Below are positions 8,393-35,727 of a DNA stretch of 64,000 nucleotides, piece by piece (the stretch's first letter is position 1; every line of letters begins with the position of its first letter). The notes under the pieces are model-generated. The model was given only the letters and a program-made list of their open reading frames with translations. It did no database searches and was not told the origin of the DNA. The translations under genes and the position numbers were made by a program. Location of the stretch: the NCBI GenBank assembly GCA_016209895.1, contig JACQVH010000109.1:8732-72731 (forward strand), given 5' to 3'. The DNA comes from Candidatus Hydrogenedentota bacterium (GTDB lineage: Bacteria; Hydrogenedentota; Hydrogenedentia; Hydrogenedentales; SLHB01).

Positions 8393-9412
8393 TTACGACG
8401 TAGTGCGAAGGAGGAGGCGGGCCTCGCCCAGCGTGAATGTGAAGATATCGGTGGCCACAGCCAAGTTGGTATGGTAGCCGGAGTTCTTGGTGGTTTGCTG
8501 GCGAATGACGGCGATGTCCACATCGTTTTCGCGCTTGGGTTCAACGACGATCCGGGCTCGGCCGGAAGCGCCTTTAGCGAGGGCTGTGAGCCAGTTTCCC
8601 TGAGGCGCGGGGGGAGGTTTGACAGGTAAGCCGCCAAATGCCGGCCGGGCCACAAGCACGCAGTAGAAGTAAGGATAATCCGTTCCCTGAACGCTGTTTA
8701 TTGAAATTTGCATCTGCAGCCCCAGAAAATCCGGCGGTCCTTCATGAAACATCAGGATGGCCTTCACGTCTGTGGGTATCTCGCCGGAACCGTCCCGGGC
8801 TTTGGCGGTCTGTAACTGGTACTGAAACACTTCGCCGCTCTTCGCGCCGGAGGCGTTGAAGGCACTTTCGATATTCAGAAGCATCTCGGATTTCACGACA
8901 AGCCGATCATTTTTCAGGATTGAGCGCACGCCGGTTATCCAGAATGGAATCAGCATCACCGGCGCATTAATGAAGAGAAATGCCGTTCGTTCCGCCGAGG
9001 GACCCGACTGCGTCAGAACGAAGACGACGAATGCGAGTGCGCAGAGCGCCGCCGTAGCCAGAATACCGACGCGTCCGATGCCATTCGTGACATCAACGAG
9101 GTCTTGGTCCCATTTCTTCTGCTCCTTGTTGATGGTGATGATGCGTTGGATCTCCTCGCTACGCGCCGGTCGCCATTCCCGGGAGGCCGCTTCCGGTTCT
9201 GCCTTATTCTCGTATCCTTTGGTAAGAAGGAGGAGCACACCGGCAAAAACAAGAAGCAGGCCGATTCCTCGCGGGGGGCCGTCCAACCCAATCTGAATCG
9301 CCAGTCCGATCGTCATCAACAAGAACGACAGCGCGAGACGCGGACCATAGGGAAGGGACTTCGCGAGGTAGAAATGAATCTCGGCTCGTCGCTCAGCTTG
9401 TGGCAACAACAT
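8393..9412 (-). CDS. Hypothetical membrane protein (two TM helices, then a soluble domain); last gene of the radical SAM operon
   Basis: The ORF 8393..9634 was trimmed to the internal Met (MLLPQAERR...) so that it no longer overlaps the upstream radical SAM gene. Two hydrophobic helices are present. No known domain was recognised. Confidence 0.45.
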   Translation of the reverse strand: MLLPQAERRAEIHFYLAKSLPYGPRLALSFLLMTIGLAIQIGLDGPPRGIGLLLVFAGVLLLLTKGYENKAEPEAASREWRPARSEEIQRIITINKEQKKWDQDLVDVTNGIGRVGILATAALCALAFVVFVLTQSGPSAERTAFLFINAPVMLIPFWITGVRSILKNDRLVVKSEMLLNIESAFNASGAKSGEVFQYQLQTAKARDGSGEIPTDVKAILMFHEGPPDFLGLQMQISINSVQGTDYPYFYCVLVARPAFGGLPVKPPPAPQGNWLTALAKGASGRARIVVEPKRENDVDIAVIRQQTTKNSGYHTNLAVATDIFTFTLGEARLLLRTTS

Positions 9413-10736
9413 GGGTCTCTCCCGAGCGGTCCAGTTCTTGGTAGCCGAAGTGCTCCCAGTATAGCGGACAGGCCCCCTGGCATAGGTCGAAATTCTCGCA
9501 TTCGTGGCATCGCGGCGGCGCACATTCCTTTTCCCGCAGTCGCCGCGCCCGCGCCGATTCCCATGTCTTCCGGAACCCGTCGCGCAACAGATTCCCAAGG
9601 GGTTCGGGCCAACTGGAACAAGGTAGCACGTCACCCCTGGGGGAAACGGAAAGTAGACCGTCGCACGCCGCGCAACCCTTGTTTCCCAGTTGGTGTTGGA
9701 TGGGGTTAAAGATGCAGACGGGTGTGGGCGAATACCACAGGAATTCCACGTTGTTCCGGCGGGCCTGGTCCTGAATGCGAAGAACGGCCTCAGACACGTC
9801 GCCGTATCGCAAGTTAATGTCCGGAAACATTGCGCGGCTCGTACCGGTAGGAATCACCAGGTTCATTGAAAACCGCTCGAGGCCCAGCGAGCGTACAAAC
9901 GCCGGCATCGCGTCTGCCGTTTCTATGTTCATTCGGTTAAGGGTAGTGTTGGTATGAACCCGGATGCCGTGGTCGCGGAGATGGCCGATACCGGCGATGG
10001 TTCGGCGAAACGAACCGTTCGCCCTCGTAAGCTCGTCGTGAATAGCCTCGTTATGCGACTCGAGGCTCACCTGCGCACTGGTCAGTCCGGCATCGCTCAG
10101 TTCTCCCGCCAGAACATCGTCTATGAGTGTTCCATTGGAAATCAGGTTCACTCGCAGACCGCATTCCTGGCGCGCGTAACGCGCCAATTCGGGAAGGTCT
10201 TTGCGCAGCGTCGGCTCGCCTCCGGTAAGACTGAGACTCGGCACCTGAGCCTCTTCCTGAATAATGCGAAGCACCCGGCGTATCTCACTGGTCGTCATTT
10301 CCGGTTCAGATTCGCGGCTTCGCGTGCATCCGCAACCCGCGTAGCAAAACCGGCAACGCAGATTGCAGCGATACGTCACGGCCACTTCGCTGAGGACCGG
10401 CAGCGAGCTAAACCGTCGCGAGAATGGTCGAGTCGTGACGGCTTCCGGCGGCCGGCGCTCATTTACGCACCCTTGAAGGACCTGTTTTAGGCCGACAAAG
10501 AAGAGGTATAGGTCGCGCTGAACTTGGGGAGAACGGCCGTGGGACTCCCACAGTTGCAGGATACCTTCACCGGCAAACAAGCGCTTCAGGATTCCTACGG
10601 CAGAGGCGTTGAGCTTGTGCGCTTCGTTCGGCACTTTGATGAGCAGGCTGTCTTCCTCCCGCACGACCACGAACCCGCGCAATCGCGCAACGTACTCGTC
10701 AATCCATTCGAGCGGGTACGGTCCGATGTCGTTCAT
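9393..10736 (-). CDS. Radical SAM / SPASM-domain enzyme with an N-terminal PqqD-like RiPP recognition element (RRE); putative peptide/protein-modifying maturase
   Basis: 447 aa. The N-terminal 90 aa or so match the PqqD/RRE pattern (SLLIKVPNEAHKLNASAVGILKRLFAGEG...). A CNLRCRFCYAG (Cx3Cx2C) radical SAM cluster motif is present. The C-terminus has a Cys-rich SPASM/twitch region (CAACDG...CSSW...CHECENFDLCQGACP). Confidence 0.85.
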   Translation of the reverse strand: MNDIGPYPLEWIDEYVARLRGFVVVREEDSLLIKVPNEAHKLNASAVGILKRLFAGEGILQLWESHGRSPQVQRDLYLFFVGLKQVLQGCVNERRPPEAVTTRPFSRRFSSLPVLSEVAVTYRCNLRCRFCYAGCGCTRSRESEPEMTTSEIRRVLRIIQEEAQVPSLSLTGGEPTLRKDLPELARYARQECGLRVNLISNGTLIDDVLAGELSDAGLTSAQVSLESHNEAIHDELTRANGSFRRTIAGIGHLRDHGIRVHTNTTLNRMNIETADAMPAFVRSLGLERFSMNLVIPTGTSRAMFPDINLRYGDVSEAVLRIQDQARRNNVEFLWYSPTPVCIFNPIQHQLGNKGCAACDGLLSVSPRGDVLPCSSWPEPLGNLLRDGFRKTWESARARRLREKECAPPRCHECENFDLCQGACPLYWEHFGYQELDRSGETHVVATS

Positions 10737-10737
10737 G

Positions 10738-12393
10738 CTAGTGCGAACCTCCGCTGACGCATGCCGAATGGCACGCCGAATGACAGGCCGAATGACAGGC
10801 GGAATGGCACGCCGAGTGACACGCCGAATGACAGGCGTCGTGGCAGGCCGAGTGCGTAAAGCACCCTTCGAAACAGTAGCTGGACTCGAGAAACTCCGAG
10901 TACGTCAACGTGTGAGCGGGCTGACGAAATTGGTCCCGGTATGTCGCCGGATCGCGGCTCCAGTAGTAATCACCATAGCGGTAAGGATAATCTTCGGCAA
11001 CCGGCTCCTCCAATACCTTTTTGGTGAATAGTTGGCTCACGATGGTCTGGTAGTGAGCGCGGGTCGCCTCCAGGTCACAGTCCCACGCGGCGCGCTGCAC
11101 GTTCGCACACAGCTTGCGGAATACCTCGTCCATTTCATTTTCATCGAGGCGATCGTCGTTCACGATATAACCGAAGACCATTTCCTCGTACGGGTTGTCG
11201 AGTCGAGGAAAGCCGGTCCGGGTGCGACAACGAAACGGGTTGGTTTGGGTAACTTCGATTACCCCCGACGTTTCGAGCCGTCCAACAATGGCGCTGAGGA
11301 TCGCCCCGAACGGTTGGTCGCATATCAAACAGGCCTCGTAAATATCGAGTTGCGCGACCTTGCCTTCTTTCCGAAAGGACGATAATTCGATCCGCGGCGG
11401 TATCCAATCTTCGCGTGACCACCGAATACTGCTCAATCCGTCGCGAGCCCGGAGCATCGAGCGGTGTTTCGCGCTGCTTACCAGCAAGACCAATCCAAGG
11501 AAGAGTGCTGCCACCAGGGCCGGGATGAAGTATGGTGTGCCTGCCTCGGCGACCGGGCGCGGCGGCATCCGCACAGCGGGGGCTCGAGGCAGGGACACCG
11601 GCGGCGGCGAGACCGCCTCCACCAGCGGCTCGTTGAAATACTTCGCCGCGATATACTGCTGAATTCGAAAGTGGTACATCTTATCCACGTTGTCGCGATG
11701 CAACCGCACCGCCAGCCAGTTGCCGCCTTCGTATTCCTGGCCGTAATAAGAGATACGGTAGTTCTCATTCATGAACGGCTCGGTTCGGAATCCGTACTGA
11801 TTCATTTCCTCGATGGTCATCGTTCCTCCCGGCAGGCTGCTCTGCGCCGGAGCCTCAACCGGATAGTAAACGCGGACCGTGTAGTGGCCTAGGGGCGCGT
11901 CCCACTGAACCGGCGCCCAATTGAAGTACACTAAGTCTCCAAATTCGGACATGGTCACACCCAAATGGCCGGACGCGAGCAGGTCGGCCGCGTAGGTGAA
12001 TTTGTAGATGACGTCCCCGGAATCAATCGCAGCGCCGCCCGCGAGCACGATATCCCATTTCCTGTCCCCCACTTTCTCGATGGAGAGCGGCAGGCTACTT
12101 CGGTTTTCGTCGTACCACGCCCGGGCATTCGCCGTGTCGAACACCGGCGTCTCCTCAACGCCCTCGAAATAGAACCCGTGAAGGTTGCCGCGAGACCGCC
12201 AACATACGCTATAGGTAACGCTGGCCTTGTAGTCGGAGCGAAGCGCTACGTCCACTTCCGCCCACTGGAGGACGCCGTCCGCGTGCGCGACCGACACGAC
12301 CAAGCAGAACAATGCGGCGGAAACGGCTAAACACAAGACCGCCCTCACCGGAGCAGTTCCCACGAAATCCATCTCGCCCTGCGTTCGGATCAC
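10738..12393 (-). CDS. Single-pass membrane protein with a secreted N-terminal domain and a cytoplasmic C-terminal domain ending in a Cys/His tetrapeptide-repeat tail (ACHS/ACHD)x7
   Basis: 551-aa ORF. It has a signal peptide ([21 protein letters not shown]), one TM helix ([21 protein letters not shown]) and a C-terminus [42 protein letters not shown]. Its stop codon is 1 nt from the radical SAM start codon. Confidence 0.6.
   Translation of the reverse strand: [551 protein letters not shown]
10759..10848 (-). repeat. Near-perfect 12-nt tandem repeat (7.5 units) encoding (Ala-Cys-His-Ser/Asp)n
   Basis: On the + strand the unit reads gcatgccgaatg / gcacgccgaatg / acaggccgaatg, repeated. The reverse complement encodes ACHS repeats in frame with the 551-aa ORF. 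Confidence 0.9.
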
Positions 12394-12555: not shown

Positions 12556-13830
12556 TCAGTTGGACATCTTTGGGTGCGAACGCAGGCCGAGTATGAGTTT
12601 CTGTGTCCAATCCTGCAACTCAGCTTTCCACTCGGGTCGTTCTCGGATACGGGCACGACACTCTTGCTTGAGTACCGGTTCAATCTCTTTGCCCAGTGAA
12701 GCCAAGTCCCTAATCAGGCTCTTAATGCCCTCTTCCTCGGCTAGGACGTTTCGAGACTGCCATGCGTTTGGACGCCCTGACATGTAGCGATGATATAGAA
12801 ATCGTGCAAGTTGGGTTCGGTCATAGTCGTCTCTGGTCACGGAACGCGGATCAAAAGTAACTCTCTTATCCCCGCCGTCGAGCCACGCTTTCCACGTCTT
12901 GTAATCCTCGTTCAATAGCCATCCCCAATCCTTACCCGTAATTTCAGTAAGCGACTCTGACGCGGCATGCCGAACGACATAATAGAGACCTAAACGGGGC
13001 TTGTGCGATGGAGTCCAAACTTGCCACTGATTCTTATCAATTTCGATTGTGGTGTCATCCTTCATGGCTTCGACGAGGGCGGCGAGGGCTTTGTCGCCGC
13101 CAAATCTCGCCAAGGCGGTGGCGGCCTTGGGGCGCACTACGGATGCTGCTTTTCCCGGCGTGTGCAGGGCCTCGATGATGTAGTCAACCGCACGCGGGTC
13201 TCCTATCTCGGCGAGGGCCGGCACGATGAACTGCGTAAGCTCCGGATGCTTATACTCCGTTGCGTGTTCGACGGCCCCGCTGCCCGCGATCACGAGTTCG
13301 TTGGCCAAAAGGTGAGCCGACCAATACTTCAGCTTGGGAGGATCCAGAATTCCTTCCACAATGCGTTCTACCCGCTGTTTCATGGGTAATTTTCGAATTT
13401 CGTTAACAATCTTTTGATACTCCAATCGGAAAATGCAATCTTCGGAAGCCAGCCGGTTCGGGAACATGGTCCGGGGTGGCCCTTTGTCCATACCCCATGT
13501 CACGTACGCATCCGTCTCTTGAATTGTGGACAAATTCTTTTCGATGAGAGCAATCTGTTCGTCAGTGAATTCGTCCATATTCGAGCGTTCGAACAGTCGC
13601 AGGAACTCGTGTAATTCTTCTCCTGATTTTTCGCTCAGATTACTTAAGATAGCGTCGAACGCCAATATCGGCTTGGGCGGAAGCTCTTCGCCGTCACCCT
13701 TCGCCGCAATCAACAGTCCGAGCATTGTGAATATGATTGTGATATGACGGTACAATAGTGTGAAGCTGCAATACCACGGAGTTTGGACAATAATTCGTAG
13801 GACCGGTGACGGCACGCTCAAAGTGGTCAT
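12556..13830 (-). CDS. HEAT-repeat (PBS-lyase-like) protein with an N-terminal hydrophobic segment
   Basis: The ORF was trimmed to the Met preceded by GGGGAGAG. Repeated A..AL..IGD..A...L motifs are typical of HEAT repeats. GC content is lower than in neighbouring genes. Confidence 0.5.
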   Translation of the reverse strand: MTTLSVPSPVLRIIVQTPWYCSFTLLYRHITIIFTMLGLLIAAKGDGEELPPKPILAFDAILSNLSEKSGEELHEFLRLFERSNMDEFTDEQIALIEKNLSTIQETDAYVTWGMDKGPPRTMFPNRLASEDCIFRLEYQKIVNEIRKLPMKQRVERIVEGILDPPKLKYWSAHLLANELVIAGSGAVEHATEYKHPELTQFIVPALAEIGDPRAVDYIIEALHTPGKAASVVRPKAATALARFGGDKALAALVEAMKDDTTIEIDKNQWQVWTPSHKPRLGLYYVVRHAASESLTEITGKDWGWLLNEDYKTWKAWLDGGDKRVTFDPRSVTRDDYDRTQLARFLYHRYMSGRPNAWQSRNVLAEEEGIKSLIRDLASLGKEIEPVLKQECRARIRERPEWKAELQDWTQKLILGLRSHPKMSN

Positions 13831-13857
13831 AACCTGCTCTCCCCTTCTCATTCTCCG

Positions 13858-13975
13858 CCCGTCTGCGTCTCGGCGAGAGATTCGATCAACGCCGCGATGT
13901 GTTCGCGGGCGGTGAGGATGGTGTTGGGGTCTTCGGTGAAGGTTTTGTTGTCTAGGAAAACCGGGGGCCTATTGC
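13858..13975 (-). pseudogene. 3'-terminal gene fragment, paralogous to the C-terminus of the FG-GAP/DUF4091 gene at 19561..23010, truncated at an IS remnant
   Basis: The fragment translates to FLDNKTFTEDPNTILTAREHIAALIESLAETQTGGE* against VLVDNKIFTEDPKTILAARERIAALIETLEKKQGGGE* at the end of the large gene. DNA identity to 19578..19690 is about 80%. Upstream of the fragment the reading frame is interrupted. Confidence 0.6.
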
Positions 13976-14121
13976 GAGTCAGGCTTCGGCGCGGAGGCGG
14001 ATTAAATCGAGACACTGTTCAAAGAGTCCGTCACTCGCTTAAGTTCCAACTTTCCATGTCGGCGTTGAAGAATCGGGTATGGACATGCTCGGTTCCCAAC
14101 GTCAACAAGGAGGGTACTTCG

Positions 14122-14433
14122 ATGGTAAAGACCGCCCGTCTGTTTAGTCAACTTCTGGACCAGATTCCCCGCACGGACTTCGCCGGGATCGTCAAGAAAC
14201 ACCAGGGGGAACGCCACGCACGGGGATTCACTTGTTGGACGCAATTCGTCGGGATGCTGTTCTCCCAACTCGCGCACGCCGATTCGTTGCGCGAGATCTG
14301 CAATGGCCTCGCCTGTTGTTTGGGAAAGCTCGTGCATCTGGGCATCCCGAACGCGCCCAACCTTACTGTCAGTCGAACTATCCGGAATGAGGCCAGAAGT
14401 TTTCGGGGCCATGTAAGAATTACCCTCTTGTAG
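14122..14433 (+). mobile_element. IS4-family transposase, N-terminal fragment only (DUF4372-like), a remnant
   Basis: MVKTARLFSQLLDQIPRTDFAGIVKKHQGERHARGFTCWTQFVGMLFSQLAHADSLREICNGL matches the conserved N-terminus of IS4/IS1634-type transposases. A GGAGG ribosome-binding site is present. The ORF terminates after about 104 aa and there is no DDE catalytic domain. Confidence 0.55.
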
Positions 14434-14560
14434 CGACAAATATACGTAAGGACCGTGTCTCGGCATGGGTAATCTGAGACAAGCGTTGCCGTTTTGCTGT
14501 GGTCCTGGCTTGCAACGCCGAAGGGATGGGCCAGGCGAACGGAGTAAGGGGTGTCGAATC

Positions 14561-15304
14561 ATGAAGAGCATAAACATGTCAAGATCGTCTATTCGTCTAT
14601 CATTGGGGATTGCCCTCGGAGTATTTGCCGTCGGGTGCCCGCTCTTGCGGGGAGTCACCGTCACGCCCAAGAACCTCGCCATGTTGGAAGGAGAAATGGC
14701 GCAACTTTCCGCGTCAAGCCGCGATCCAAAAGATACATCATTTACGTGGTCTTCGGGCAACCCGGGTGTTGCGACGGTCGACAACACGGGCAAGGTAACC
14801 GCGGTTGCGGAAGGCACGGCAACAATCACGGCTACGGGAACAATCAGCCTTGCCGCCGGCAACGCGGAAGTAAGCGTTGCGCCCGCGCCGGAGCCGACCA
14901 TGGGTGAAACGCTTCTTGAGTTCATTACTAAGGAGGACCCCTACGACGAGTGGACTCAGTTCCCGGACGCTCAGGGGAGCTTCGACAGTTCCCCGCCCCA
15001 CGGCCCCAAGTCCCGTGTCTTCATCAATGGCGTGGTGAACGACGCTCTTGCCGCCAACTTCACCGGTTCGCTGCCGGACGGGTCCATCATTGTGAAAGAA
15101 AGCTTTGATGAAAACATGGTGGAATCCGGCGACTCCCTGACGGTCATGTGGAAAGTGGATGGATTCAACCCGGATGCTAACGATTGGTTCTGGTCTATGA
15201 ACAGTTCTGACGGCAAAGTCCTGGCGGAAGGCAAGATTCAGGGATGCATTAGCTGTCACGGCATCCGGCAAAACAACGATTTCATCTTTCTACACACGTT
15301 CTAA
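14561..15304 (+). CDS. Lipoprotein with an N-terminal bacterial Ig-like (Big_2) domain and a C-terminal cytochrome P460-like haem domain
   Basis: A lipobox-like signal (LGIALGVFAVGCP) is followed by a Big_2-like beta-rich segment (VTVTPKNLAMLEGE...TATITATG). The C-terminus (PDGSIIVKESF...LTVMWKVDGF...DWFWSMNSSDGKVLAEGKIQGCISCHG) matches the P460 pattern, including the terminal CxxCH. AAGGGG ribosome-binding site. Confidence 0.5.
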   Translation: MKSINMSRSSIRLSLGIALGVFAVGCPLLRGVTVTPKNLAMLEGEMAQLSASSRDPKDTSFTWSSGNPGVATVDNTGKVTAVAEGTATITATGTISLAAGNAEVSVAPAPEPTMGETLLEFITKEDPYDEWTQFPDAQGSFDSSPPHGPKSRVFINGVVNDALAANFTGSLPDGSIIVKESFDENMVESGDSLTVMWKVDGFNPDANDWFWSMNSSDGKVLAEGKIQGCISCHGIRQNNDFIFLHTF

Positions 15305-18243: not shown

Positions 18244-19314
18244 GCGCGGGCGCCCGCCTTGCGGGACCAAAGGCTGGGATGCCGGCACTGCCGAAGTTGC
18301 CGTCGGGCATTCCGGCACTTGCAAAGCCGGACCGTCCCCAAGCCCCCGCAAAGAGACCAGCCCGCAGTCCGCAATTGCCAAACGTCCCTATGCTGCCATC
18401 GCCGCATGCGCCGGGGCGGTAGCGCGACGCGATGAAATCAGTTTCGCAGGCGTCACAAAACAAAACCCTTAACTTAGCGCCATTCAGTAGCGTCCCCATT
18501 TCTCAAGATACTTATCTTGGCCGTGCATCAGTATTGCTGCGTTGATTCGAAATCTGATAGTCAATCTCTAAATCGCCGTACGTGGACTCCGAATATAGGA
18601 CATCTTCAGGCAGACACGTTGGACATTGAATACGAACCACGTTCTCCGGGAACGACTAAATTGAGCACATCAACCAGTACGCCATACCATCCACGCATGA
18701 AAACGTACAACGTCACGCATAAAATGGCAACAATGATCGTTGCCTTGATCACGTTCTTCGACGATTTATTCATTTGGCCCCTGAAGTGACTGCCGCTGTT
18801 CCAGGGCGAAATCTGGGCGAAATTTGGAAATCTACCAGATTCAATGTCTAAGGGCAACGCACGGGGCTGTATATCCGGGGGACCTTTTGATCGTGGACTG
18901 CTGAAATTCGCACCCTGGCCCCGGATTCCCCGGATAACCGTCCGAGTTTGTCCGTGTCGGCCCCTTTGAGTTCTGCGCGCTTCGAGTTCCTTGCGATTAA
19001 ATCAGAAAAAAAGAACAGCCACGAAGAACCGCCTCTTCGTACCCTTCGCGGTTCCTCAAGACGTATTTCGCATCTTTCACTTTTTACATAGGTCGAGTGC
19101 AACGCCCGGGGCTATATATATAGAGGGATATTTGCAACCCAGAGGACCAGACCCAAACATGGAAACCACTTACGCCACGGGCAAAACTGAACCGACGCCC
19201 CACCACACCCACCATACCTTCTATGCCCCACTCCGCACTTGCGTGCCACTCGCACATTCCCAACGCTCTTGTCAATCGTGGTCATGGCCGCGCTCGGCCA
19301 ATTCCTACAAAAAT

Positions 19315-19412
19315 GTATCACGCTTTTGTACCGATTTTGATCTCTTTTGTGCCACTTTGTACCGATTTTCACAAAAAAAGTCCGCTTTTGTACCGATTTT
19401 GTACCGTTTTTT
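19315..19412. repeat. Four copies of the direct repeat TTTTGTACCGATTTT (tandem to closely spaced), within a 1 kb AT-rich intergenic region
   Basis: Copies: cgcttttgtaccgattttga, ccactttgtaccgattttca, cgcttttgtaccgattttgtaccgtttttt. Confidence 0.8.
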
Positions 19413-19560
19413 CGCGCCAAATTCCCTTCTCACCTCGGCTTCTCTCATTGCACGCCAAGGACTTACGCTTCAGCACCCCCGCCCGCCCCTGTCAAAAAGC
19501 GACCGGATCGCATGCGGAATGCGGAACGTCCCACGTACCGTGTTCATCGGACACTACAGC

Positions 19561-22500
19561 TCATTCTCCACCGCCTTGCTTCTTCTCGAGAGTTTCGATC
19601 AGTGCCGCGATGCGTTCACGGGCGGCGAGAATGGTTTTCGGGTCTTCGGTGAAGATCTTGTTGTCCACGAGGACCTGGGGATCGATCGCGAGTTCCGCTT
19701 GGGTGCGCGCACGCAGATCCGGCGGGATGCTGTCGCCCATAGACTCGAGGAGCGTCTTGAGCAGATGCAAGTATTCGTAGTCCTCGATGCCGTCGCGGAC
19801 CGCCTCGAAGCGGGTCGAGCCGAGGGGCGTGCCGTCCGGGCCGGGGTAGATCAGATAGCCGCAGCCGTTGTGGCCGGGCTGCTCGTTCCAGGGAATCCAG
19901 TCCACTTCCGGCCAGCGTTTATCGCTTGTGCAGTTCAGGTTCCAATGCGTGGTGCCCCAATAGAGGAAACCTTCCGCGCCGTATTTCCAGCATTCCCAGA
20001 ACATGAGCCGGTGGTCGGTGGCGGGAAACTCGATCATGATGCCGGGCCGGCCCCAGACCGTGTAGAACCAGAGGCGTTCGCCCTTCGCCTTCCGGTCTTC
20101 GAGCACTTGCGGGTCGAAATGGTCAATCACCGGGCACCAGATATCCACGGCGCCGAACAACGACGGTTCCGGCGCGCTGGTCTCGAGCCTGGGCCACCAG
20201 GACATGGTTGTCTTGAGCCAAGCATTGGTTTCGACAAACTGCGGAATGGCGTGGCGCGTCATCACGGCCACCTCGTCCCAACTATAAAAGAGCGCCATCT
20301 GGTCCCAGCCCTTTTGTTCGAGCAAGGCGCGCGTGGTCCGAACATTCTCCAGGAACTCGGTTCGCTCTTTCTCGGTGGCCAGCCCGGGAACGCCGATGAA
20401 GAAGTTGTTCTGGCCGTTCGCCATCAGATACTCGAAGTCTTCCATCATGCCCTCGCCGTTGAGCGGGAAATCCTTGATCGGCCCCGCGCGATGATCGAGA
20501 TGATACTGGTAGAAACGCTTGCGGACCTCGAGTGGCGTTCGGTCCGAGTATTTGTAAAACCGCTGCAGCCAGCTCTCATTCATCCAAAACGACGTTTTCA
20601 GGTGCGTTTCCTTCGGAAGCGCAAAGTCCCACACGTGCGCCTGGAAGGGAAGGTTTACCGGCGAGCAACCGTCCGCGACGATGTGGATTTCCCCGGCATA
20701 GTCGCCGGCGGGCGTGTCGTCACGGGTCCGCACGGTGACGAAGTACGGCTGGGCGTCCTGGTCGGCGGCAACGTCTATCGGCGAATCGGAAAACGTGATG
20801 TCCGGCCACCAACCCTGCTTCTCCACGCGGAAGTTGTATTCGGAGGGACCAATCTTCACGTAGCCGATCCGGTAAACGAGAATGTCTTCGCTGGGGATGC
20901 GGCTCGATCCGCCGATTTGGTTGAGATCGGTGACGGTTATGCGAAGATTCTTGAGGTCTTTCCAGAGTGGTACTACAACGATTTGAACGCCTTCCAGTTC
21001 ATTCGCTGCCAACGAAACCGAACTGGGCCAAGCCTCGGCATCCTTCCGGAGATACGGTTCATCCTTGAACACTTTTTTCAACTGCGTGTCCGATACGACC
21101 GCGAAATCCAGCTTTGTTCCGGGCGTACGCTCCGCAGCCCGAAGACGCGCCCCTTCGCGACGAGTCTCCCGCAACGCTTCATGAACTCGTTTGACCGCCG
21201 CTTCGCGCGCTCGCATGGAGGCGTTCTTATCTTGTCTCGCGTCCGTGATCTCTTTCCGCGCATGGTCCGCTGCCGCCCGCAACGCCGTTTGGCCTCGCTC
21301 TACGGCTTCGTTATCACTCAGTTTATTTACCAATCGCTGTCCTTCCGTCAGCAGGTCGTCCAGTTCTTCTTCCTCGAAGCCGTAACTGTGAAGATGATTC
21401 AGGCCTACTTTCTCGGCCAGCGTTTCTCCGGTTCCAATATCGAAGAGTCGCAGCCGGAGTTCGTATTCGCCTTCGAACAGCGCCGGAAAGTCCAGGTACG
21501 CGCGTGCGTTCTCATACGGCTCGAATCGTCCTGTTGTTACTTGGGCGATGGGCAAGCCTACCGGCGGCAGCGCTGCCGGCGGCAGCAGTTTCGCATGTAC
21601 TTCAAGACGGCGCGGTCGCTGCGAATTGTTTGTGAACGAGAACTCCACCCGGTTTGTGCCCATTTGCAACGGGCCGAACGACTTGAACTCGAGGTCCGCG
21701 AGCCGCTTCTCCGGAATTTCTACACCGCGTGGCAGAAATGGCACACCGGTGTAATTACCCGTAAGTTGCGCGTCATGCGAGATGCAGGGCCATGGAACGC
21801 GTTCCGGATGGTAGGCTCCGTCCACGGTCACGCAATAGACGAATCGGTCTTTGCTGGTGAATACAATCTCAGTCTGGCCGTCGCCGTCCACGTCCCCGAT
21901 AGCGGGAGTCGTCAGCGACCCGGCCTCGGACGGATACGTCCACGCCTCTTGACCGTCCGCCGTCAGGCAAGTGAGTCGGTTCCCGCGCGAGCAGACCAGG
22001 ACATCCAGTTTCCCGTCGCCATCCACGTCGCCAATGGAAGGCCCTTGCACCACGCCCCCGCCGACGTTCGCGGCCCAGAGGCTTTGGCCGTCCCGCAGCC
22101 GGTACACGTACCCCGAACTGTCTCCGCAAAGGATGTCCAGCTTGCCCGAACCGTCGAAATCCGCGAGCGCAAAGGTGCCGGTTTGATCAAGAGAACCTTT
22201 GCCTTTCCAGCGCCACCGCTCTTGACCAGTCGCGGCGTTCGACACCACCACCTGGAAATCTTCCGTGGCCCAGATGACTTCCGCCTGACCATCGTGATCG
22301 AGGTCGCCGACCGCCGGACCGGAGCGACGCTCGCCGCGTGCTCCCGGTTCGTTCTGCGACCACAGCATCTGAGGTCCTGCCTCGAGGCAGGCAGCCCTGC
22401 CTCGGCTGAAGACCGCGTACACGTGTGCCGTATGCGACAACGCGTTGTAAGCGACGGCTGGTATGCCGCGAACGGCGCCGTCGCCCTGATAATGCCAGCG

Positions 22501-23010
22501 TTCCATGCCGCAATCATCAAGGCAGTACAAGCTGCCGTCTTCTGCCCCGACGAGCACTTCAATGGCGCCATCGCCGTCCATATCGGCCAGTACCGGTCCG
22601 CTGTAGTTGACGCCGCTGCCGAGATACGTCCGCCAGAGGAGCCGGCCTTGGTAGTCCAGACAGCCCACGATCCCGTTCATGTCCGCGAAGTAGATTTCCA
22701 GCCTGCCGTCACCGTCGGCATCTACGGCGGAGGCGGTGGCCTGAATGCCGTCGTTATTGGCCCCGTCAACGCGGTAGGACCAGAGCAGTTCCCCCATGCC
22801 GCTCAAACAGAGGACGCGCTTGTCCCGCGAGGCACAGACGATGATCTCCGTGCGTCCGTCGCCATCCACGTCGGCCAAAATCGGCGACGCATATATTTTC
22901 CCTTCCGTTTCGAATGCCCACTCCAACCGCGGCGCCAACGCCAAAGCGGCAGATGGAAGTACGATCAGAATGACATAGAATCGAATCCCACGGATCATAT
23001 TGTTCGCCAT
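19561..23010 (-). CDS. Large secreted protein: N-terminal FG-GAP/PQQ-like beta-propeller repeats, a coiled-coil segment and a C-terminal DUF4091-type glycoside-hydrolase-like domain
   Basis: A signal peptide is present. There are at least seven DxDGDG repeats (LADVDGDGRTEIIV, AVDADGDGRLEIYF, LADMDGDGAIEVLV...). The C-terminal region has WFYTVWGRPG and related DUF4091-like motifs. AAGGGG ribosome-binding site before MANNM. Confidence 0.7.
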   Translation of the reverse strand: MANNMIRGIRFYVILIVLPSAALALAPRLEWAFETEGKIYASPILADVDGDGRTEIIVCASRDKRVLCLSGMGELLWSYRVDGANNDGIQATASAVDADGDGRLEIYFADMNGIVGCLDYQGRLLWRTYLGSGVNYSGPVLADMDGDGAIEVLVGAEDGSLYCLDDCGMERWHYQGDGAVRGIPAVAYNALSHTAHVYAVFSRGRAACLEAGPQMLWSQNEPGARGERRSGPAVGDLDHDGQAEVIWATEDFQVVVSNAATGQERWRWKGKGSLDQTGTFALADFDGSGKLDILCGDSSGYVYRLRDGQSLWAANVGGGVVQGPSIGDVDGDGKLDVLVCSRGNRLTCLTADGQEAWTYPSEAGSLTTPAIGDVDGDGQTEIVFTSKDRFVYCVTVDGAYHPERVPWPCISHDAQLTGNYTGVPFLPRGVEIPEKRLADLEFKSFGPLQMGTNRVEFSFTNNSQRPRRLEVHAKLLPPAALPPVGLPIAQVTTGRFEPYENARAYLDFPALFEGEYELRLRLFDIGTGETLAEKVGLNHLHSYGFEEEELDDLLTEGQRLVNKLSDNEAVERGQTALRAAADHARKEITDARQDKNASMRAREAAVKRVHEALRETRREGARLRAAERTPGTKLDFAVVSDTQLKKVFKDEPYLRKDAEAWPSSVSLAANELEGVQIVVVPLWKDLKNLRITVTDLNQIGGSSRIPSEDILVYRIGYVKIGPSEYNFRVEKQGWWPDITFSDSPIDVAADQDAQPYFVTVRTRDDTPAGDYAGEIHIVADGCSPVNLPFQAHVWDFALPKETHLKTSFWMNESWLQRFYKYSDRTPLEVRKRFYQYHLDHRAGPIKDFPLNGEGMMEDFEYLMANGQNNFFIGVPGLATEKERTEFLENVRTTRALLEQKGWDQMALFYSWDEVAVMTRHAIPQFVETNAWLKTTMSWWPRLETSAPEPSLFGAVDIWCPVIDHFDPQVLEDRKAKGERLWFYTVWGRPGIMIEFPATDHRLMFWECWKYGAEGFLYWGTTHWNLNCTSDKRWPEVDWIPWNEQPGHNGCGYLIYPGPDGTPLGSTRFEAVRDGIEDYEYLHLLKTLLESMGDSIPPDLRARTQAELAIDPQVLVDNKIFTEDPKTILAARERIAALIETLEKKQGGGE

Positions 23011-23262
23011 ACGAAGGCCCCTTGATTTGCTTCCCTCACCCAATCTCGAAATGCATCCTCGAACCCGTCCCTGCAACTATACACCTGCTCGTCGTCAGGC
23101 ACGAAGCGTAGTGAGGTGCCGTCCCGCGACCGGAATACGTACTTGTCGTTCCGATGTTCACGCTTGCAGGGCTACGGTTCGGGGTCGGAATGGCGGCCTC
23201 GACTTTATTTCCGCGTTGGTTAACGCAGCGGAAGACTTCTGAATCGTTGGGAGCGAACCACC

Positions 23263-31015: not shown

Positions 31016-32833
31016 ATGTCAGCACCGAATGAACGTATCCGCACGTTCTGCATCATCGCGCATGTAGACCACGGGAAGTCCACGCTGGCCGACCGGATTC
31101 TGCAAGTCACGGGCGCGGTGGAAGAGCGGAAATTACGCGAGCAGACGCTCGATACCATGGATATCGAGCGGGAGCGCGGCATTACGATCAAGGCCGTCGC
31201 CGTCCGGCTGCACTACCGGGCCGAGAACGGCGGCGACTACGTGCTAAACCTGATTGACACTCCGGGGCACGTGGACTTCTCTTACGAGGTATCGCGCAGC
31301 CTGGCGGCTTGCGAAGGGGCGCTCCTGTTGGTGGACGCCGCGCAAGGCGTAGAAGCGCAGACGCTGGCCAATGCGTACAAGGCCATTGATCAAGACCTCG
31401 AGATTATCCCGGTCATCAATAAGATTGACCTCCCCAGCGCCGACGTTGAATCGGCGCGTCGCCAAATCCACGACTTGGTTGGCCTGAATGCGCAGGAAGC
31501 CATCCTGGCCAGCGCCAAGGAAGGCATCGGCACGCAGACCATTCTCGAAGCCATCATCCGCCGGATACCGCCGCCGAAAGGCGACCGTGAAGCGCCGCTG
31601 CGCGCGCTGATCTTCGACGCCGTGTACGATTCCTATCGCGGCGTAATCGTCTACGTGCGGATTGTGGATGGTCGCGTGACCAAAGGGATGAAGGTTCTGA
31701 TGATGTTCAACGGACTGCGATACGAGGTGGACGAAGTCGGTGTGTTTTCCCCCGAGATTACCGCGACGGACATCCTGGAAGCCGGCGAAGTGGGGTACGT
31801 AATCTGCAACATCAAAACCCTCCGAAGCACCAAGGTCGGGGACACGATTACCGATGCACTAAAGCCGGCGGCGGAGCCGCTGCCCGGTTACGAGGAAGTG
31901 CAGCCCGTCGTATTCTGCGGGATGTATCCGGCGGTCGCGAACGACTATGAGGAGTTGCGCAACGCCCTCGAAAAGCTGCAGCTTAACGACGCCTCATTTC
32001 AGTACCAGGCCGACAAATCCGACGCGTTGGGACTCGGATTCCGGCTCGGATTCCTGGGTCTGCTACACATGGAAATTATCCAGGAGCGGCTCGAACGGGA
32101 ATTCGATTTGACGCTGGTGACCACGGTGCCCAACGTCGCCTATCAGATACGGCTGAAGAGCGGCGAGCGCCTCACCATCGAGAACGCTTCCAAGATGCCG
32201 CCTTCCAACTTGATCGAGGAAGTTGCCGAGCCCTATATCGAGGCCGAGATCATCTGTCCCACCGAATATATGAGCGGCGTCATCGAACTCTGCAAGAAGA
32301 AGCGCGGCGTGCACGTTCGCGTGGATTACATAGACAGCAAGCGATGCCTGGCCATTTACCAGATGCCGCTGGCCGAGATCGTGCTGGATTTCTACGACCG
32401 ACTGAAGTCGTGCACCCGGGGATATGGCTCGCTCGAATATCGGCTGATTGGCTACCGGCCCGGAGAGCTGGTTAAGTTGGATATTCTGCTGAACGGCGAA
32501 GCCGTAGACGCCTTGTCCTCGATTGTCCATCGTGACCGCGCAGAATGGGTGGGCCGCACGCTGGCCTCGAAGTTGCGCACGCTCATCCCACGGCAGCAGT
32601 ACGAGATTGCCATCCAGGCGGCGATCGGCAACCGGATCCTGGTGCGCGAGACCATTAAGGCGCTCCGCAAGAACGTCACGGCGAAATGCTACGGCGGCGA
32701 TATTACGCGCAAGCGCAAACTGCTCGAGAAACAGAAAGAAGGCAAGAAACGGATGAAGCAGATTGGCGCCGTAGAGGTGCCGCAGGAAGCGTTTATGGCG
32801 TTGCTACGCGTCAACGATGGAGCCGAGCGGTAG
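31016..32833 (+). CDS. lepA: Elongation factor 4 (LepA)
   Basis: [29 protein letters not shown]..., with GTPase G1-G4 motifs and a LepA-specific C-terminal domain. Confidence 0.95.
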
Positions 32834-32834
32834 C

Positions 32835-34370
32835 ATGCGTAAGCATCCGGTACAGCCGCGCGTGGCCGCCGAGTGGAACCCGTCGCCGGCAGGTATTCTG
32901 CTTGCGCCGTTTCACGCCGTGATCGGGCCATTGACACGCGAGAACGGCATGATGTGGATCAAAATCATCTTGATTGTTTTGGTCCTCCGTTGGGCGATTG
33001 TGGAGCCGTTTTCGATCCCTTCGGGATCAATGGAGCCGACGTTGCACGGCGACGCGCGCTGGTTTCGCGGAGATCATGTCTTCGTCAACAAGTGGATTTA
33101 CGGCCTGCGCTTTCCATTCGAGGGCTCGCGTGTTCCCTTCACAAAAAAGCGCATCTCCTATGCCGGGCGGCGCATCTGGCAAGGCACCGCACCGAAACGC
33201 TGGGACATCGTCGTGTTCAAAGCCGTGCCGGCGAATGCCCCGCATAACACGTTGATCAAACGTATAGTCGGGCTTCCCGGGGAACGCATCCACATTTCCA
33301 ATGGCCGGATTTACGTGAACGGGGCGCCGGCAGAGCCCCCGGCGGAATTACGCAGCGTACTCAATTACAACACACGTTTTGATCCGTCGGACGACGACGT
33401 GCGGAAGCTCATCCTGGAGTGCGCCCGCCGCGGACAGCCGCCGGCCGCGCTGAACCTGCGAAACAACAATGTGCAGCGCTTCGTCCGCGACATTCAACGG
33501 TTGCATCCGCTCGTGAAAGGACGCGTGGTTTCACAGATTCCGGAACAAGAAGCTAAGCGAATTCTCCAGGACATTGATCCGATTACGTGGAACGTAGCCC
33601 GTGATTTCGGGGTTCGGGACGTGAACGAAGCGAATCCTTGTCTCTATGGTGTTCTTCCCGAGGATGAGTATTCGGTCGTGCCGGCGGACCATTATCTCGT
33701 ACTCGGCGACAATAGCGCCTCGAGCGTGGACGGGCGGGTCTTTGGCTGGTTGCCGGGCGAGAACATCGTGGGTCGCGCCTTCTGTGTCTGGTGGCCGCTG
33801 ACCCGCCTCCGCGATTTCACCGGATTCTCCCAAACGTGGTGGGGTCGGCTGTTGCTCTTCGGCATCCCGGCAATGATCGTCCTGTATGAGGTCGTCATTC
33901 GGTTCTTCTGGCGTTCATTGCGCATTCCCCACGATATTGCCGGGGGCGGCATCGCGCGGGGCGAGCACGTCCTTGTCAATCGGATTGTTTTCGGTTTGCG
34001 TTACCCGTTCAGCGCGCGAAGGCTGCTGCCGGGTCGCACGCCGTTGCCGGGCGAGATCGTGCTGTACCGCGTCGTGGCCACAGAGGACGGCGGCCATGAG
34101 TTTAAGATTGGACGAGTCGCTCAGGTCGCACATGACGCTTCCAAACCGGAGAGTGGCGGGAAGAGCAACGAGATTCCCGATGCATATCATATCGTCAACC
34201 TGGTTCCGTGCGGCGACTCGAAGGATTCTCCGCCCGACGTTGTTAACATGGCATCCATTTTCGGGAGCGTGCAGTGGGTATGGCGGCCGCTTCATCGCAT
34301 CCGTCGCATTCCGATTGATGTTTCCGTGGTAGGTAGCAGCGCGCCCACCGAGAAAACAGAATCCGATTAA
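32835..34370 (+). CDS. lepB: Signal peptidase I (S26) with a second, degenerate S26-like repeat
   Basis: Box B (SIPSGSMEPTL) and the Lys box (LIKRIVGLPGERIH) are present, with a GDNSASSVDGR motif. After an extra TM helix, a second copy (GEHVLVNRIVFGLRYPF...GEIVLYRVVA) lacks the Ser nucleophile. Confidence 0.8.
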   Translation: MRKHPVQPRVAAEWNPSPAGILLAPFHAVIGPLTRENGMMWIKIILIVLVLRWAIVEPFSIPSGSMEPTLHGDARWFRGDHVFVNKWIYGLRFPFEGSRVPFTKKRISYAGRRIWQGTAPKRWDIVVFKAVPANAPHNTLIKRIVGLPGERIHISNGRIYVNGAPAEPPAELRSVLNYNTRFDPSDDDVRKLILECARRGQPPAALNLRNNNVQRFVRDIQRLHPLVKGRVVSQIPEQEAKRILQDIDPITWNVARDFGVRDVNEANPCLYGVLPEDEYSVVPADHYLVLGDNSASSVDGRVFGWLPGENIVGRAFCVWWPLTRLRDFTGFSQTWWGRLLLFGIPAMIVLYEVVIRFFWRSLRIPHDIAGGGIARGEHVLVNRIVFGLRYPFSARRLLPGRTPLPGEIVLYRVVATEDGGHEFKIGRVAQVAHDASKPESGGKSNEIPDAYHIVNLVPCGDSKDSPPDVVNMASIFGSVQWVWRPLHRIRRIPIDVSVVGSSAPTEKTESD

Positions 34371-34377
34371 CATCCCC

Positions 34378-35727
34378 ATGGCCAAGAAGAACAAGAAACC
34401 GTCGAAATCTACCAACGTGGCGCGCTCGACCCGGGACTCATCGGCGGGGAAGATCGGGCCTTGGGCGTTGGTTGTCGGCGCGTTGGTCGCCGTGGTCGGC
34501 GGACTTACCCGCGAGAATGGTCTCGAATGGATCAAGAGCATATTCATCGCGGTGGCGCTGGCCCTGGCGATCCGGTGGTCCTTGGCGGAACCGTTCAAGA
34601 TTCCGTCCGATTCCATGAAGCCTACTTTCGAGGGGGATGAGCGCTTCATGCGCGGCGACCGGGTCTTCGTCAACAAATGGATATACGGGCTTCGATTCCC
34701 ATTTAACGGGTCGCGCCTTCCGTTTACGCAGACTCGGGTGTGGTACGCCCAGCATCGCATCTGGCGCGGCGCGTTGCCGCAGCGAGGCGACATCGCGGTC
34801 TTCCGGGCGGTCGGAGAAAAGCCCCGGCATGACATCCTGGTCAAACGCGTCGTCGGCCTGCCGGGCGAGCGCATCCATATCGCCGGCGGCAAGGTTTACG
34901 TGAACGGAGCACCGCTCGACGCACCGAAGTCCATTGCGAACAACTTCTACACGTCCGACGGCGAGTTCGGCGTGTTGCAGGATGACGCCCACGCGGTGGT
35001 GCCGGAGAACTGTTACCTCTTGCTGGGTGACAACAGCCGGGCCAGCAGCGATGGCCGCTTTTTCGGCTGGGTACCGGAAGTACACATCCTGGGTCGCGTT
35101 GCTTGCATTTGGTGGCCGATCAGCCGCTGGCGCGATTTCACCGGTTTCACCAAGACGTGGTGGTGGCGTTCCACGATAGCGTTGTTGAGCGTGTTGCTAG
35201 TAGTACGATTACTATTTGGGCGTTCCTGGCGCGTCCGGTTCGAGACGCTGGGAAACACGCTTCGTCCAGACGAGCACGTGTTTGTGAATCGTTTCATTTA
35301 CGGCCTTCCCCTGCCGTTTACGCGCGTACGCATCCTCCCCGGACGTCGCCCGTGTCGCGGCGAAATCGTGCTCTATCATAGCCCCGGCGGCGAGGGTCAC
35401 TTGAGCCTCGGACGCGTCGCGGGTTTACCCAAAGAGCAGGTGTATCTGGATGAAGGCAGATTGACCGTGGACGGCGCCGCCGTGACCGACCCGCCTTCTC
35501 TGGCGCAAGGTGTCTTCACTTCGGGTGACGGAGTGGGGCCCTTCGGGAGATCGAAAGGCAAAGAGTTTTCACTGGTACCGGAAGATCATTACTTCATTCT
35601 ATGCGATACGGTGCAAGACGGCGAAGACAGCCGCAGCCTGGGTTGGATTCCACACCGGAACCTCGTCGGCCCGGTAAGGGCCGTCTGGTGGCCGCCACGT
35701 CGCTGGCGGCGGGTGAGAATAGGCTGA
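34378..35727 (+). CDS. lepB: Signal peptidase I paralog with the same duplicated architecture
   Basis: KIPSDSMKPTF, VKRVVGLPGERIH and GDNSRASSDGR motifs are present. The second, degenerate repeat is DEHVFVNRFIYGLPLPF...GEIVLYHSPG. Confidence 0.8.
   Translation: MAKKNKKPSKSTNVARSTRDSSAGKIGPWALVVGALVAVVGGLTRENGLEWIKSIFIAVALALAIRWSLAEPFKIPSDSMKPTFEGDERFMRGDRVFVNKWIYGLRFPFNGSRLPFTQTRVWYAQHRIWRGALPQRGDIAVFRAVGEKPRHDILVKRVVGLPGERIHIAGGKVYVNGAPLDAPKSIANNFYTSDGEFGVLQDDAHAVVPENCYLLLGDNSRASSDGRFFGWVPEVHILGRVACIWWPISRWRDFTGFTKTWWWRSTIALLSVLLVVRLLFGRSWRVRFETLGNTLRPDEHVFVNRFIYGLPLPFTRVRILPGRRPCRGEIVLYHSPGGEGHLSLGRVAGLPKEQVYLDEGRLTVDGAAVTDPPSLAQGVFTSGDGVGPFGRSKGKEFSLVPEDHYFILCDTVQDGEDSRSLGWIPHRNLVGPVRAVWWPPRRWRRVRIG

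Follow-up and report, generated by a model that had tools for sequence, protein, structure and literature searches.

The window (the whole 64-kb stretch of DNA that was analysed, from a fragmented metagenome-assembled genome, MAG) very probably carries a two-step genomic scar, in which an insertion sequence (IS) entered a functional paralog of a large FG-GAP/GH123 gene and a deletion followed. The locus contained the 3' end of such a paralog lying against the left end of an IS4-family element. The first homology broke off at 14002 and the second at 14367, and the parts missing from both were absent from the window. An earlier note on this DNA had proposed that an insertion and then a deletion destroyed a paralog, and this course is supported, as the IS terminus at 14013 abuts the end of the paralog homology at 14002 and the remaining parts are missing. 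The order of the events, a single deletion, a former operon with the adjacent HEAT-repeat gene and a full-length ancestral paralog are what we infer from these observations. The features of the locus and of the intact paralog, from left to right in the window, were the following:

12556..13830, minus strand: HEAT-repeat gene, 424 aa (P0121, exact NCBI protein), with Pfam HEAT_2 and HEAT_PBS
13848..14002, minus strand: gene stump (pseudogene), the 3' remnant of a paralog of the large FG-GAP + GH123/DUF4091 gene
14004..14012, no strand: presumed left copy of a 9-bp target-site duplication, AAATCGAGA, proposed from relatives of the IS; the right copy is missing
14013..14030, plus strand: degenerate left terminal inverted repeat CACTGTTCAAAGAGTCCG (consensus CACTCTTGTCCWAAACAG)
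14031..14121, plus strand: IS leader between the inverted repeat and the transposase start, with a Shine-Dalgarno sequence AAGGAGGG at 14107-14114
14122..14367, plus strand: codons 1-82 of an IS4-family transposase (DUF4372 domain), with no stop codon and no frameshift
14368..14433, plus strand: read-through tail of 21 codons and a stop codon (14431-14433), not transposase-derived
14561..15304, plus strand: intact lipoprotein gene, the right-hand neighbour, with a Big_2 and a cytochrome P460-like domain and a lipobox in the translation
19561..22998, minus strand: large gene, the intact paralog, with an FG-GAP/VCBS beta-propeller and a GH123 (formerly DUF4091) catalytic domain

The gene stump and the intact large gene

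The large gene encodes a protein that is annotated with 1145 aa (MBI4557453.1, 'VCBS repeat-containing protein'; an exact NCBI match), and its longest ORF extends to 23076 and comprises 1171 aa. The protein matched FG-GAP_3 (E 6e-29) and GH123_cat (E 6e-19) in Pfam. A blastn comparison of 13700-14600 with the whole window gave a single notable non-self match, between 13847-13993 and 19560-19707 (148 nt, 77% identity, E 1.8e-26), which was widened by gapped local alignment to 13847-14002 against 19560-19718, with a score of 80. The same alignment of 1000 dinucleotide-preserving shuffles scored 12.1 +/- 1.8 with a maximum of 21 (z = 37), which ruled out a chance or compositional origin of the similarity. 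The large protein also matched the window at 14000-13851 in tblastn with composition-based statistics on (E 7.8e-11). By all three measures (blastn, tblastn and z), the 3' fragment of a paralog that had been reported from the letters alone is real, and it remained highly significant once composition bias was accounted for, with a score of 80 against a shuffle maximum of 21.

The stump and the large gene have the stop codon in common (TGA, at 13848-13850 in the stump). The last 37 codons of the stump (13851-13961) were aligned to the large gene in frame and without gaps, with 26 of 37 amino acids (70%) and 87 of 111 nucleotides (78%) identical; the earlier estimates of about 75% and 80% were slightly high. 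Further upstream, the gapped local alignment contained an indel of 1 nt near 13963 and another of 2 nt near 13989. The 155-nt stump corresponds to approximately the last 51-55 codons of the 1171-codon ORF of the large gene. The span previously given for the fragment, 13858-13975 with some 35 codons, was therefore too narrow, as the stop codon lies at 13848-13850, the homology reaches approximately 14002, and about 51 codons with two indels are kept. Significant colinear homology in the same frame up to a shared stop codon identifies the stump and the large gene as paralogs. Past this stop codon no similarity between the two was found, and beyond 14002 there was no similarity to the large gene either, with local alignment scores below the shuffle mean. 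A MAFFT global alignment was suggestive of paralog homology in 14003-14121, and this candidate was rejected because the local scores were below those of the shuffles. A self-comparison of the 64-kb window gave two repeat families in all, the stump with the large gene and a pair of adjacent tandem paralogs on the plus strand, 32817-34370 and 34378-35727, with 68-70% DNA identity over 170-346 nt.

The nearest database homologues of the C-terminal 472 aa of the large protein were 57-68% identical in a word-seeded protein search, and the C-termini of the homologues shared the motif DNK-FTEDP--IL-AR--IAALIE. The tail ...Q(G/T)GGE* was found in the stump and the large gene only and was absent from six other family members (57-68% identical), indicating that the two are lineage-specific paralogs. 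By this tail, the stump is a lineage-specific paralog of the large gene and not kin of another family member.

According to the Nei-Gojobori method, the 37 aligned stump codons had 26.7 synonymous sites with 11.3 differences and 84.3 non-synonymous sites with 12.7 differences, which corresponds to a dS of 0.63, a dN of 0.17 and a dN/dS of 0.27 (Fisher p 0.006; 37 codons, a small sample). Had the copy been neutral since it arose, its comparison with a constrained gene would be expected to give a dN/dS of about 0.5 or more. The synonymous excess thus suggests that the lost paralog was once functional and under purifying selection over most of the divergence. These codons, 37 in number, favour a working gene in which selection would have acted for most of that time.

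The ATG of the HEAT-repeat gene (13830) was located 17 nt past the stop codon of the stump and had its own ribosome-binding site, GGGGAGAG. Judging from this spacing, the HEAT gene was probably once co-transcribed with the lost paralog as an operon. No relatives of the HEAT protein were detected in GTDB representative genomes, and the protein database contained only two homologues, with 44% identity, unrelated neighbours and no GH123 gene beside them. No HEAT gene followed P0124 or P0126, the database proteins most similar to the large protein, and the large gene itself had no HEAT counterpart beside it. Two degenerate-pattern scans of JGI metagenomes with a stump-specific peptide yielded only two matches, both by chance. 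A relative with an undisturbed locus was thus found neither among the GTDB representatives nor in the protein database or the JGI metagenomes. A sigma-70-like match (TTGACT-18-TACCAT) was observed at 14151-14122 on the minus strand, inside the IS stump and pointing to the gene stump and the HEAT gene. It is possible that this site serves as a replacement promoter for the HEAT gene; the 1.1-kb region contained four promoter-like sites against 0.5 expected, for a consensus that may not be that of the host. Rfam, tRNA and terminator scans around the locus returned nothing.

Other features were observed beside these genes. A 1344-aa ORF (18991-23025, plus strand) lay antisense to the whole large gene and is most likely a by-product of the codon usage and GC of the large gene and not a gene. 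Downstream of the large gene, the stretch 18400-19560 (approximately 1.1 kb) was ORF-poor, lower in GC and without an annotated gene, and it matched nothing in Rfam; it included about four copies of TTTGTACCGATTTT-like motifs at 19300-19420, for which TRF gave a consensus unit of CCGATTTTGTA at 19382-19411. To the left of the HEAT gene, the minus strand of 9393-12393 encoded a 551-aa protein with no Pfam match and a cysteine-rich C-terminal repeat (ACHS, about eight times; ...CFTHSACHDACHSACHSACHS...ACVSGGSH). A gene for a radical SAM/SPASM enzyme (9393-10736) was located immediately downstream, and the two resemble a peptide-maturase pair, of which the presumed 'precursor' would be unusually large.

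The insertion sequence remnant

GenBank lists the ORF at 14122-14433 (103 aa) as a DUF4372 domain-containing protein, and the ORF matched Pfam DUF4372 with 97 bits (E 5.6e-28). Against the NCBIfam model of the IS4 family, NF033592, it scored 24.5 bits (cut-off 115), with only model positions 1-55 present. Homology to transposases was confined to residues 1-82, and residues 83-103 were unrelated read-through. The ORF had been described as the N-terminal 104 aa of a transposase; the DUF4372 match (E 5.6e-28) bears out an N-terminal transposase piece, of which only 82 residues are transposase-derived. A scan of GTDB representative genomes returned 348 confirmed loci of this transposase family, and the ORF of the relatives typically comprised 391-402 aa (80 of the 348 loci). 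Two full-length relatives, 74-76% identical over the stump, contained DUF4372 and DDE_Tnp_1 domains and scored 240-264 bits against NF033592 (cut-off 115), whereas their scores against the IS1634 model NF033559 were 28-36 bits, below its cut-off of 100. The type named in the earlier note, IS4/IS1634, therefore holds for IS4 (264 bits, cut-off 115) and fails for IS1634 (36 bits, cut-off 100). Its statement that neither piece is intact was correct, because the gene stump lacks the 5' part and the transposase is cut after codon 82 of approximately 391.

The transposase stump shared 88-92% amino acid identity with copies in other Hydrogenedentota MAGs, and 14062-14343 was 83% identical in DNA to the nearest relative (L001). 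The changes relative to L001 were nearly all synonymous, with a dN of 0.045 and a dN/dS of 0.05; the very few non-synonymous changes indicate that the stump has spent little time decaying. Independent copies of the element occurred in other metagenomes at L001:419-855 and L002:4600-5950, each broken by IS3-family elements, and an IS21-type element (IstB) lay just upstream of the latter, forming a nest of insertion sequences.

Forty intact copies from other genomes set the limits of the IS; most of them were 1.41-1.51 kb long and a few up to 1.63 kb. These copies began with CACTCTTGTCC... on the left (left-end consensus CACTCTTGTCCWAAACAG) and ended with ...GGACAGCAGTG on the right, and in 21 of the 40 the CACT...AGTG element was directly flanked by perfect 9-bp direct repeats. 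The distance between the left end and the ATG was 98-129 nt in most relatives. In the window, CACTGTT at 14013 lies 109 nt before the transposase ATG and thus inside the family range. The motif CACTSYT occurred only five times on the plus strand of the 64-kb window, once at 14013, and by our own arithmetic the probability of a chance occurrence in a 32-nt interval is about 0.0025. The inverted repeat at this position seemed to be approximately 3 nt short in its TGTCC core. A search of 13976-14121 for terminal inverted repeats, as had been suggested, thus found a left terminus, which was degenerate and had no right partner in the window. An nhmmer search with a profile of the 5' leaders of the relatives was significant for 14059-14124 (E 3.3e-7) and gave no significant alignment for 14013-14058, which suggests that approximately the first 50 positions of the IS are decayed. 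The gap between the end of the paralog homology at 14002 and the IS terminus at 14013 amounted to 10 nt, including the presumed target copy; the 9-10 nt between the two are as expected for a target copy. No second copy of AAATCGAGA was found nearby on the plus strand.

The close contact between the two stumps could alternatively reflect a partial duplication that was dead on arrival, with only about 155 nt ever copied, for instance as flanking DNA carried along with the IS. The piece is indeed short and lies directly against the IS end, and the full-length ancestral copy was not observed. However, a neutral copy should give a dN/dS of about 0.5 or more and not the 0.27 found here with its synonymous excess (p 0.006), and the gene stump, with a dS of about 0.63, goes back much further than the IS stump, which has hardly decayed (dN 0.045). 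The similarity also ends exactly at the stop codon, with the next gene following at operon spacing with a ribosome-binding site of its own, and transduction of flanking DNA is not known from IS4-family elements, which also counts against such a copy. We consider this explanation very improbable, and the destruction of a once functional paralog remains the preferred reading.

The two ORFs of the locus could also be real small genes, as annotated. On the minus strand, 13848-14015 is a 55-aa hypothetical protein in GenBank (MBI4557446.1, HY706_07680), and the DUF4372 protein might have been kept to bind DNA and regulate or inhibit related transposases. Both frames are open, and the DUF4372 ORF retains its ATG behind a strong Shine-Dalgarno sequence, with no disabling change across 82 codons; solo DUF4372 stumps elsewhere also break repeatedly at residues 81-94. 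On the other hand, the 55-aa ORF takes its GTG start from the complement of the terminal CAC of the IS (14013-15), no ribosome-binding site precedes it, and its N-terminal third is frameshifted paralog sequence. The 55-aa ORF is, from its composition, an accidental fusion of the IS end, the target copy and the gene stump. The DUF4372 ORF for its part ends in 21 codons of unrelated sequence, and it diverged while still within an active IS, which accounts for the low dN/dS. There is little likelihood, in our judgement, that either ORF is a genuine small gene.

Short DUF4372 proteins were nevertheless frequent in the databases. The best 120 matches of the ORF in a word-seeded protein search were all of 177 aa or shorter, and an exhaustive search of representatives returned 3718 relatives, of which most among the matches listed were short and a few had 359-402 aa. 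Nearly all representative matches ended at query residue 81-83 in their alignment to the window ORF. P0016 is the front half of a transposase into which an IS3-family element is nested, with the DDE_Tnp_1 half following 1.4 kb further, and in P0002 the transposase is cut at residue 74 by a nested IS. The many short entries were attributed to fragments that form clusters of their own, contig ends and nested insertions, which can also account for them without recourse to real small genes. A complete small DUF4372 protein, the outcome that could have overturned the reading as a transposase fragment, was therefore rejected: the relatives are DUF4372 + DDE_Tnp_1 transposases of 391-402 aa, and the short ones are cut by nested IS or contig ends.

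Solo N-terminal transposase stumps with no DDE part nearby were present in the window and, in unrelated genomes, at L023, L067, L069, L084, L093 and L003, the last with P0008. The breaks of this set fell at residues 81, 82, about 88 (twice), about 90, 93 and 94. All of these stumps were open reading frames, and each had a different downstream sequence. The transposase of L001 contained a nested IS at residue 74, and other truncations were scattered at 158, 175, 254, 279 and 304. There might be a preference for keeping truncated DUF4372 DNA-binding domains, which could for instance inhibit transposition in trans, a proposal drawn from the positions of the breaks that we regard as highly unlikely. 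The clustering of breaks after DUF4372 could instead reflect a position that is structurally prone to breakage or to nested insertion, or sampling or database bias. The six P0008 loci were identical in the ORF and gave no power to detect selection on the DUF4372 stump.

The probable deletion junction and course of events

In a residue-by-residue comparison, the window ORF departed from the family consensus after ...HLGIPNAPN, at 14367/14368, which is the probable deletion junction. The adjoining 14368-14560 had no match to IS sequence. The DDE domain was found nowhere in the 64-kb window, and neither was a right inverted repeat beyond chance or the 5' part of the paralog. The right-hand neighbour matched Big_2 (E 3.5e-15) and Cytochrome_P460 (E 7e-7). 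A MITE-like, internally deleted IS with both ends was considered and rejected, because 14368-14700 contained no right inverted repeat and no IS-like sequence. Chimeric assembly joins normally fall in shared repeat sequence. The junction at 14367/14368 does not lie inside a shared repeat, and an assembly error there, like a rearrangement that took the missing parts to another locus, is judged unlikely.

A rearrangement, that is, an inversion or translocation, for example via another IS copy, would have carried off the 5' part of the paralog, together with the remainder of the IS, to a different site in the genome. The search for these parts covered one 64-kb window of a fragmented MAG, and the 5' part could survive in another place; moreover, the IS family is multi-copy in many genomes and often the site of nested insertions. 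Homologous recombination between IS copies, however, leaves an intact IS at the junction. Here, the similarity to the IS breaks off sharply at codon 82, and no IS sequence was matched in the next 193 nt. No second close paralog was detected with the C-terminal 472 aa of the large gene (best 57-68%), which is a weak argument because the search missed the query's own protein, and each database homologue examined has its own C-terminus, unlike that of the stump. On balance, a rearrangement is an unlikely explanation, and we retain insertion followed by deletion as the better account.

According to this account, a second functional FG-GAP + GH123/DUF4091 copy would have been located on the minus strand directly upstream of the HEAT gene. 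An IS4-family element of about 1.4 kb would then have inserted approximately 55 codons before the paralog stop codon, with its left end facing the 3' end of the paralog and with a 9-bp target duplication. An illegitimate deletion that started at transposase codon 83 and ran rightwards would have removed the remainder of the IS, with its DDE domain and right inverted repeat, together with the entire 5' part of the paralog (approximately 3.3 kb), and would have ended 193 nt upstream of the Big_2/P460 lipoprotein gene. The leftover, non-functional on this reading, is the 155-nt gene stump, the decayed inverted repeat, the leader and an 82-codon transposase stump with 21 random codons. The difference between the dS of the gene stump (0.63) and the dN of the transposase stump (0.045) suggests that insertion and deletion were recent relative to the paralog duplication. 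The insertion of an IS followed by an adjacent deletion is a textbook route of gene loss.

Significance and comparison with known systems

The scar indicates recent activity of an IS4-family element in this Hydrogenedentota lineage and, of two FG-GAP/GH123 paralogs, the loss of one. This loss may have left the downstream HEAT gene dependent on a new promoter. As a matter of annotation hygiene, MBI4557446.1 and the DUF4372 protein of 103 aa would better be labelled as remnants of pseudogenes. As a by-product, the ends, the size and the 9-bp target duplication of a DUF4372-bearing IS group were defined from the 40 intact copies. The locus itself is an ordinary genomic fossil without special functional interest.

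Among GH123/DUF4091 proteins, the stump has its homologue in the large protein of the window, whose C-terminal tail it matches, and it has the C-terminal motif of the family. Of the 1171 residues of the large protein, the Pfam GH123 catalytic domain (PF13320) occupies 900-1106, and the stump aligns only to 1118-1171. The stump thus lies wholly past the catalytic domain and contains no catalytic or propeller sequence. The 55-aa stump ORF matched no family in Pfam.

The likeness to the IS4 family lies in the N-terminal DUF4372 domain of the stump and in the relatives, which are above the NF033592 cut-off and have DDE_Tnp_1. Marks of this family are a DDE_Tnp_1 catalytic domain with DDE and YREK motifs, inverted repeats with a 5'-CA start at either end and target-site duplications of about 8-13 bp. 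The copy in the window differs in that it is a 355-bp left stump (14013-14367) with a decayed repeat and without the DDE domain or the right end, and it therefore cannot transpose. IS1634 elements have a DDE transposase that is distantly related to that of IS4, and the matches of the relatives to NF033559 were weak and sub-threshold. As judged from its domain and its relatives, the window stump is a remnant of an IS4-family element and not of IS1634, nor is it a functional member. IS4Sa elements are listed with a length of 1150-1750 bp, the ends CA------T and direct repeats of 8-10 bp, and IS1634 elements with direct repeats of 5-6 bp and a length of 1.5-2.0 kb (De Palmenaer et al., 2008, PMC2266710). 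The relatives of the window copy, with 1.41-1.51 kb, termini that start with CA and have T at position 9, and 9-bp duplications, fit IS4Sa, and they differ from IS1634 in direct repeats (9-bp vs. 5-6-bp) and in size (approximately 1.4 kb vs. 1.5-2.0 kb). By end signature and size alone, the IS group appears most like IS4Sa.

Other IS-associated pseudogenes and deletion scars have followed the same course, in which a gene is interrupted and adjacent DNA is lost together with part of the IS, and their residual ORFs are likewise called small proteins by annotation pipelines. Nothing distinguishes the locus described here from these, and it represents an unremarkable example of such scars from a poorly sampled phylum.
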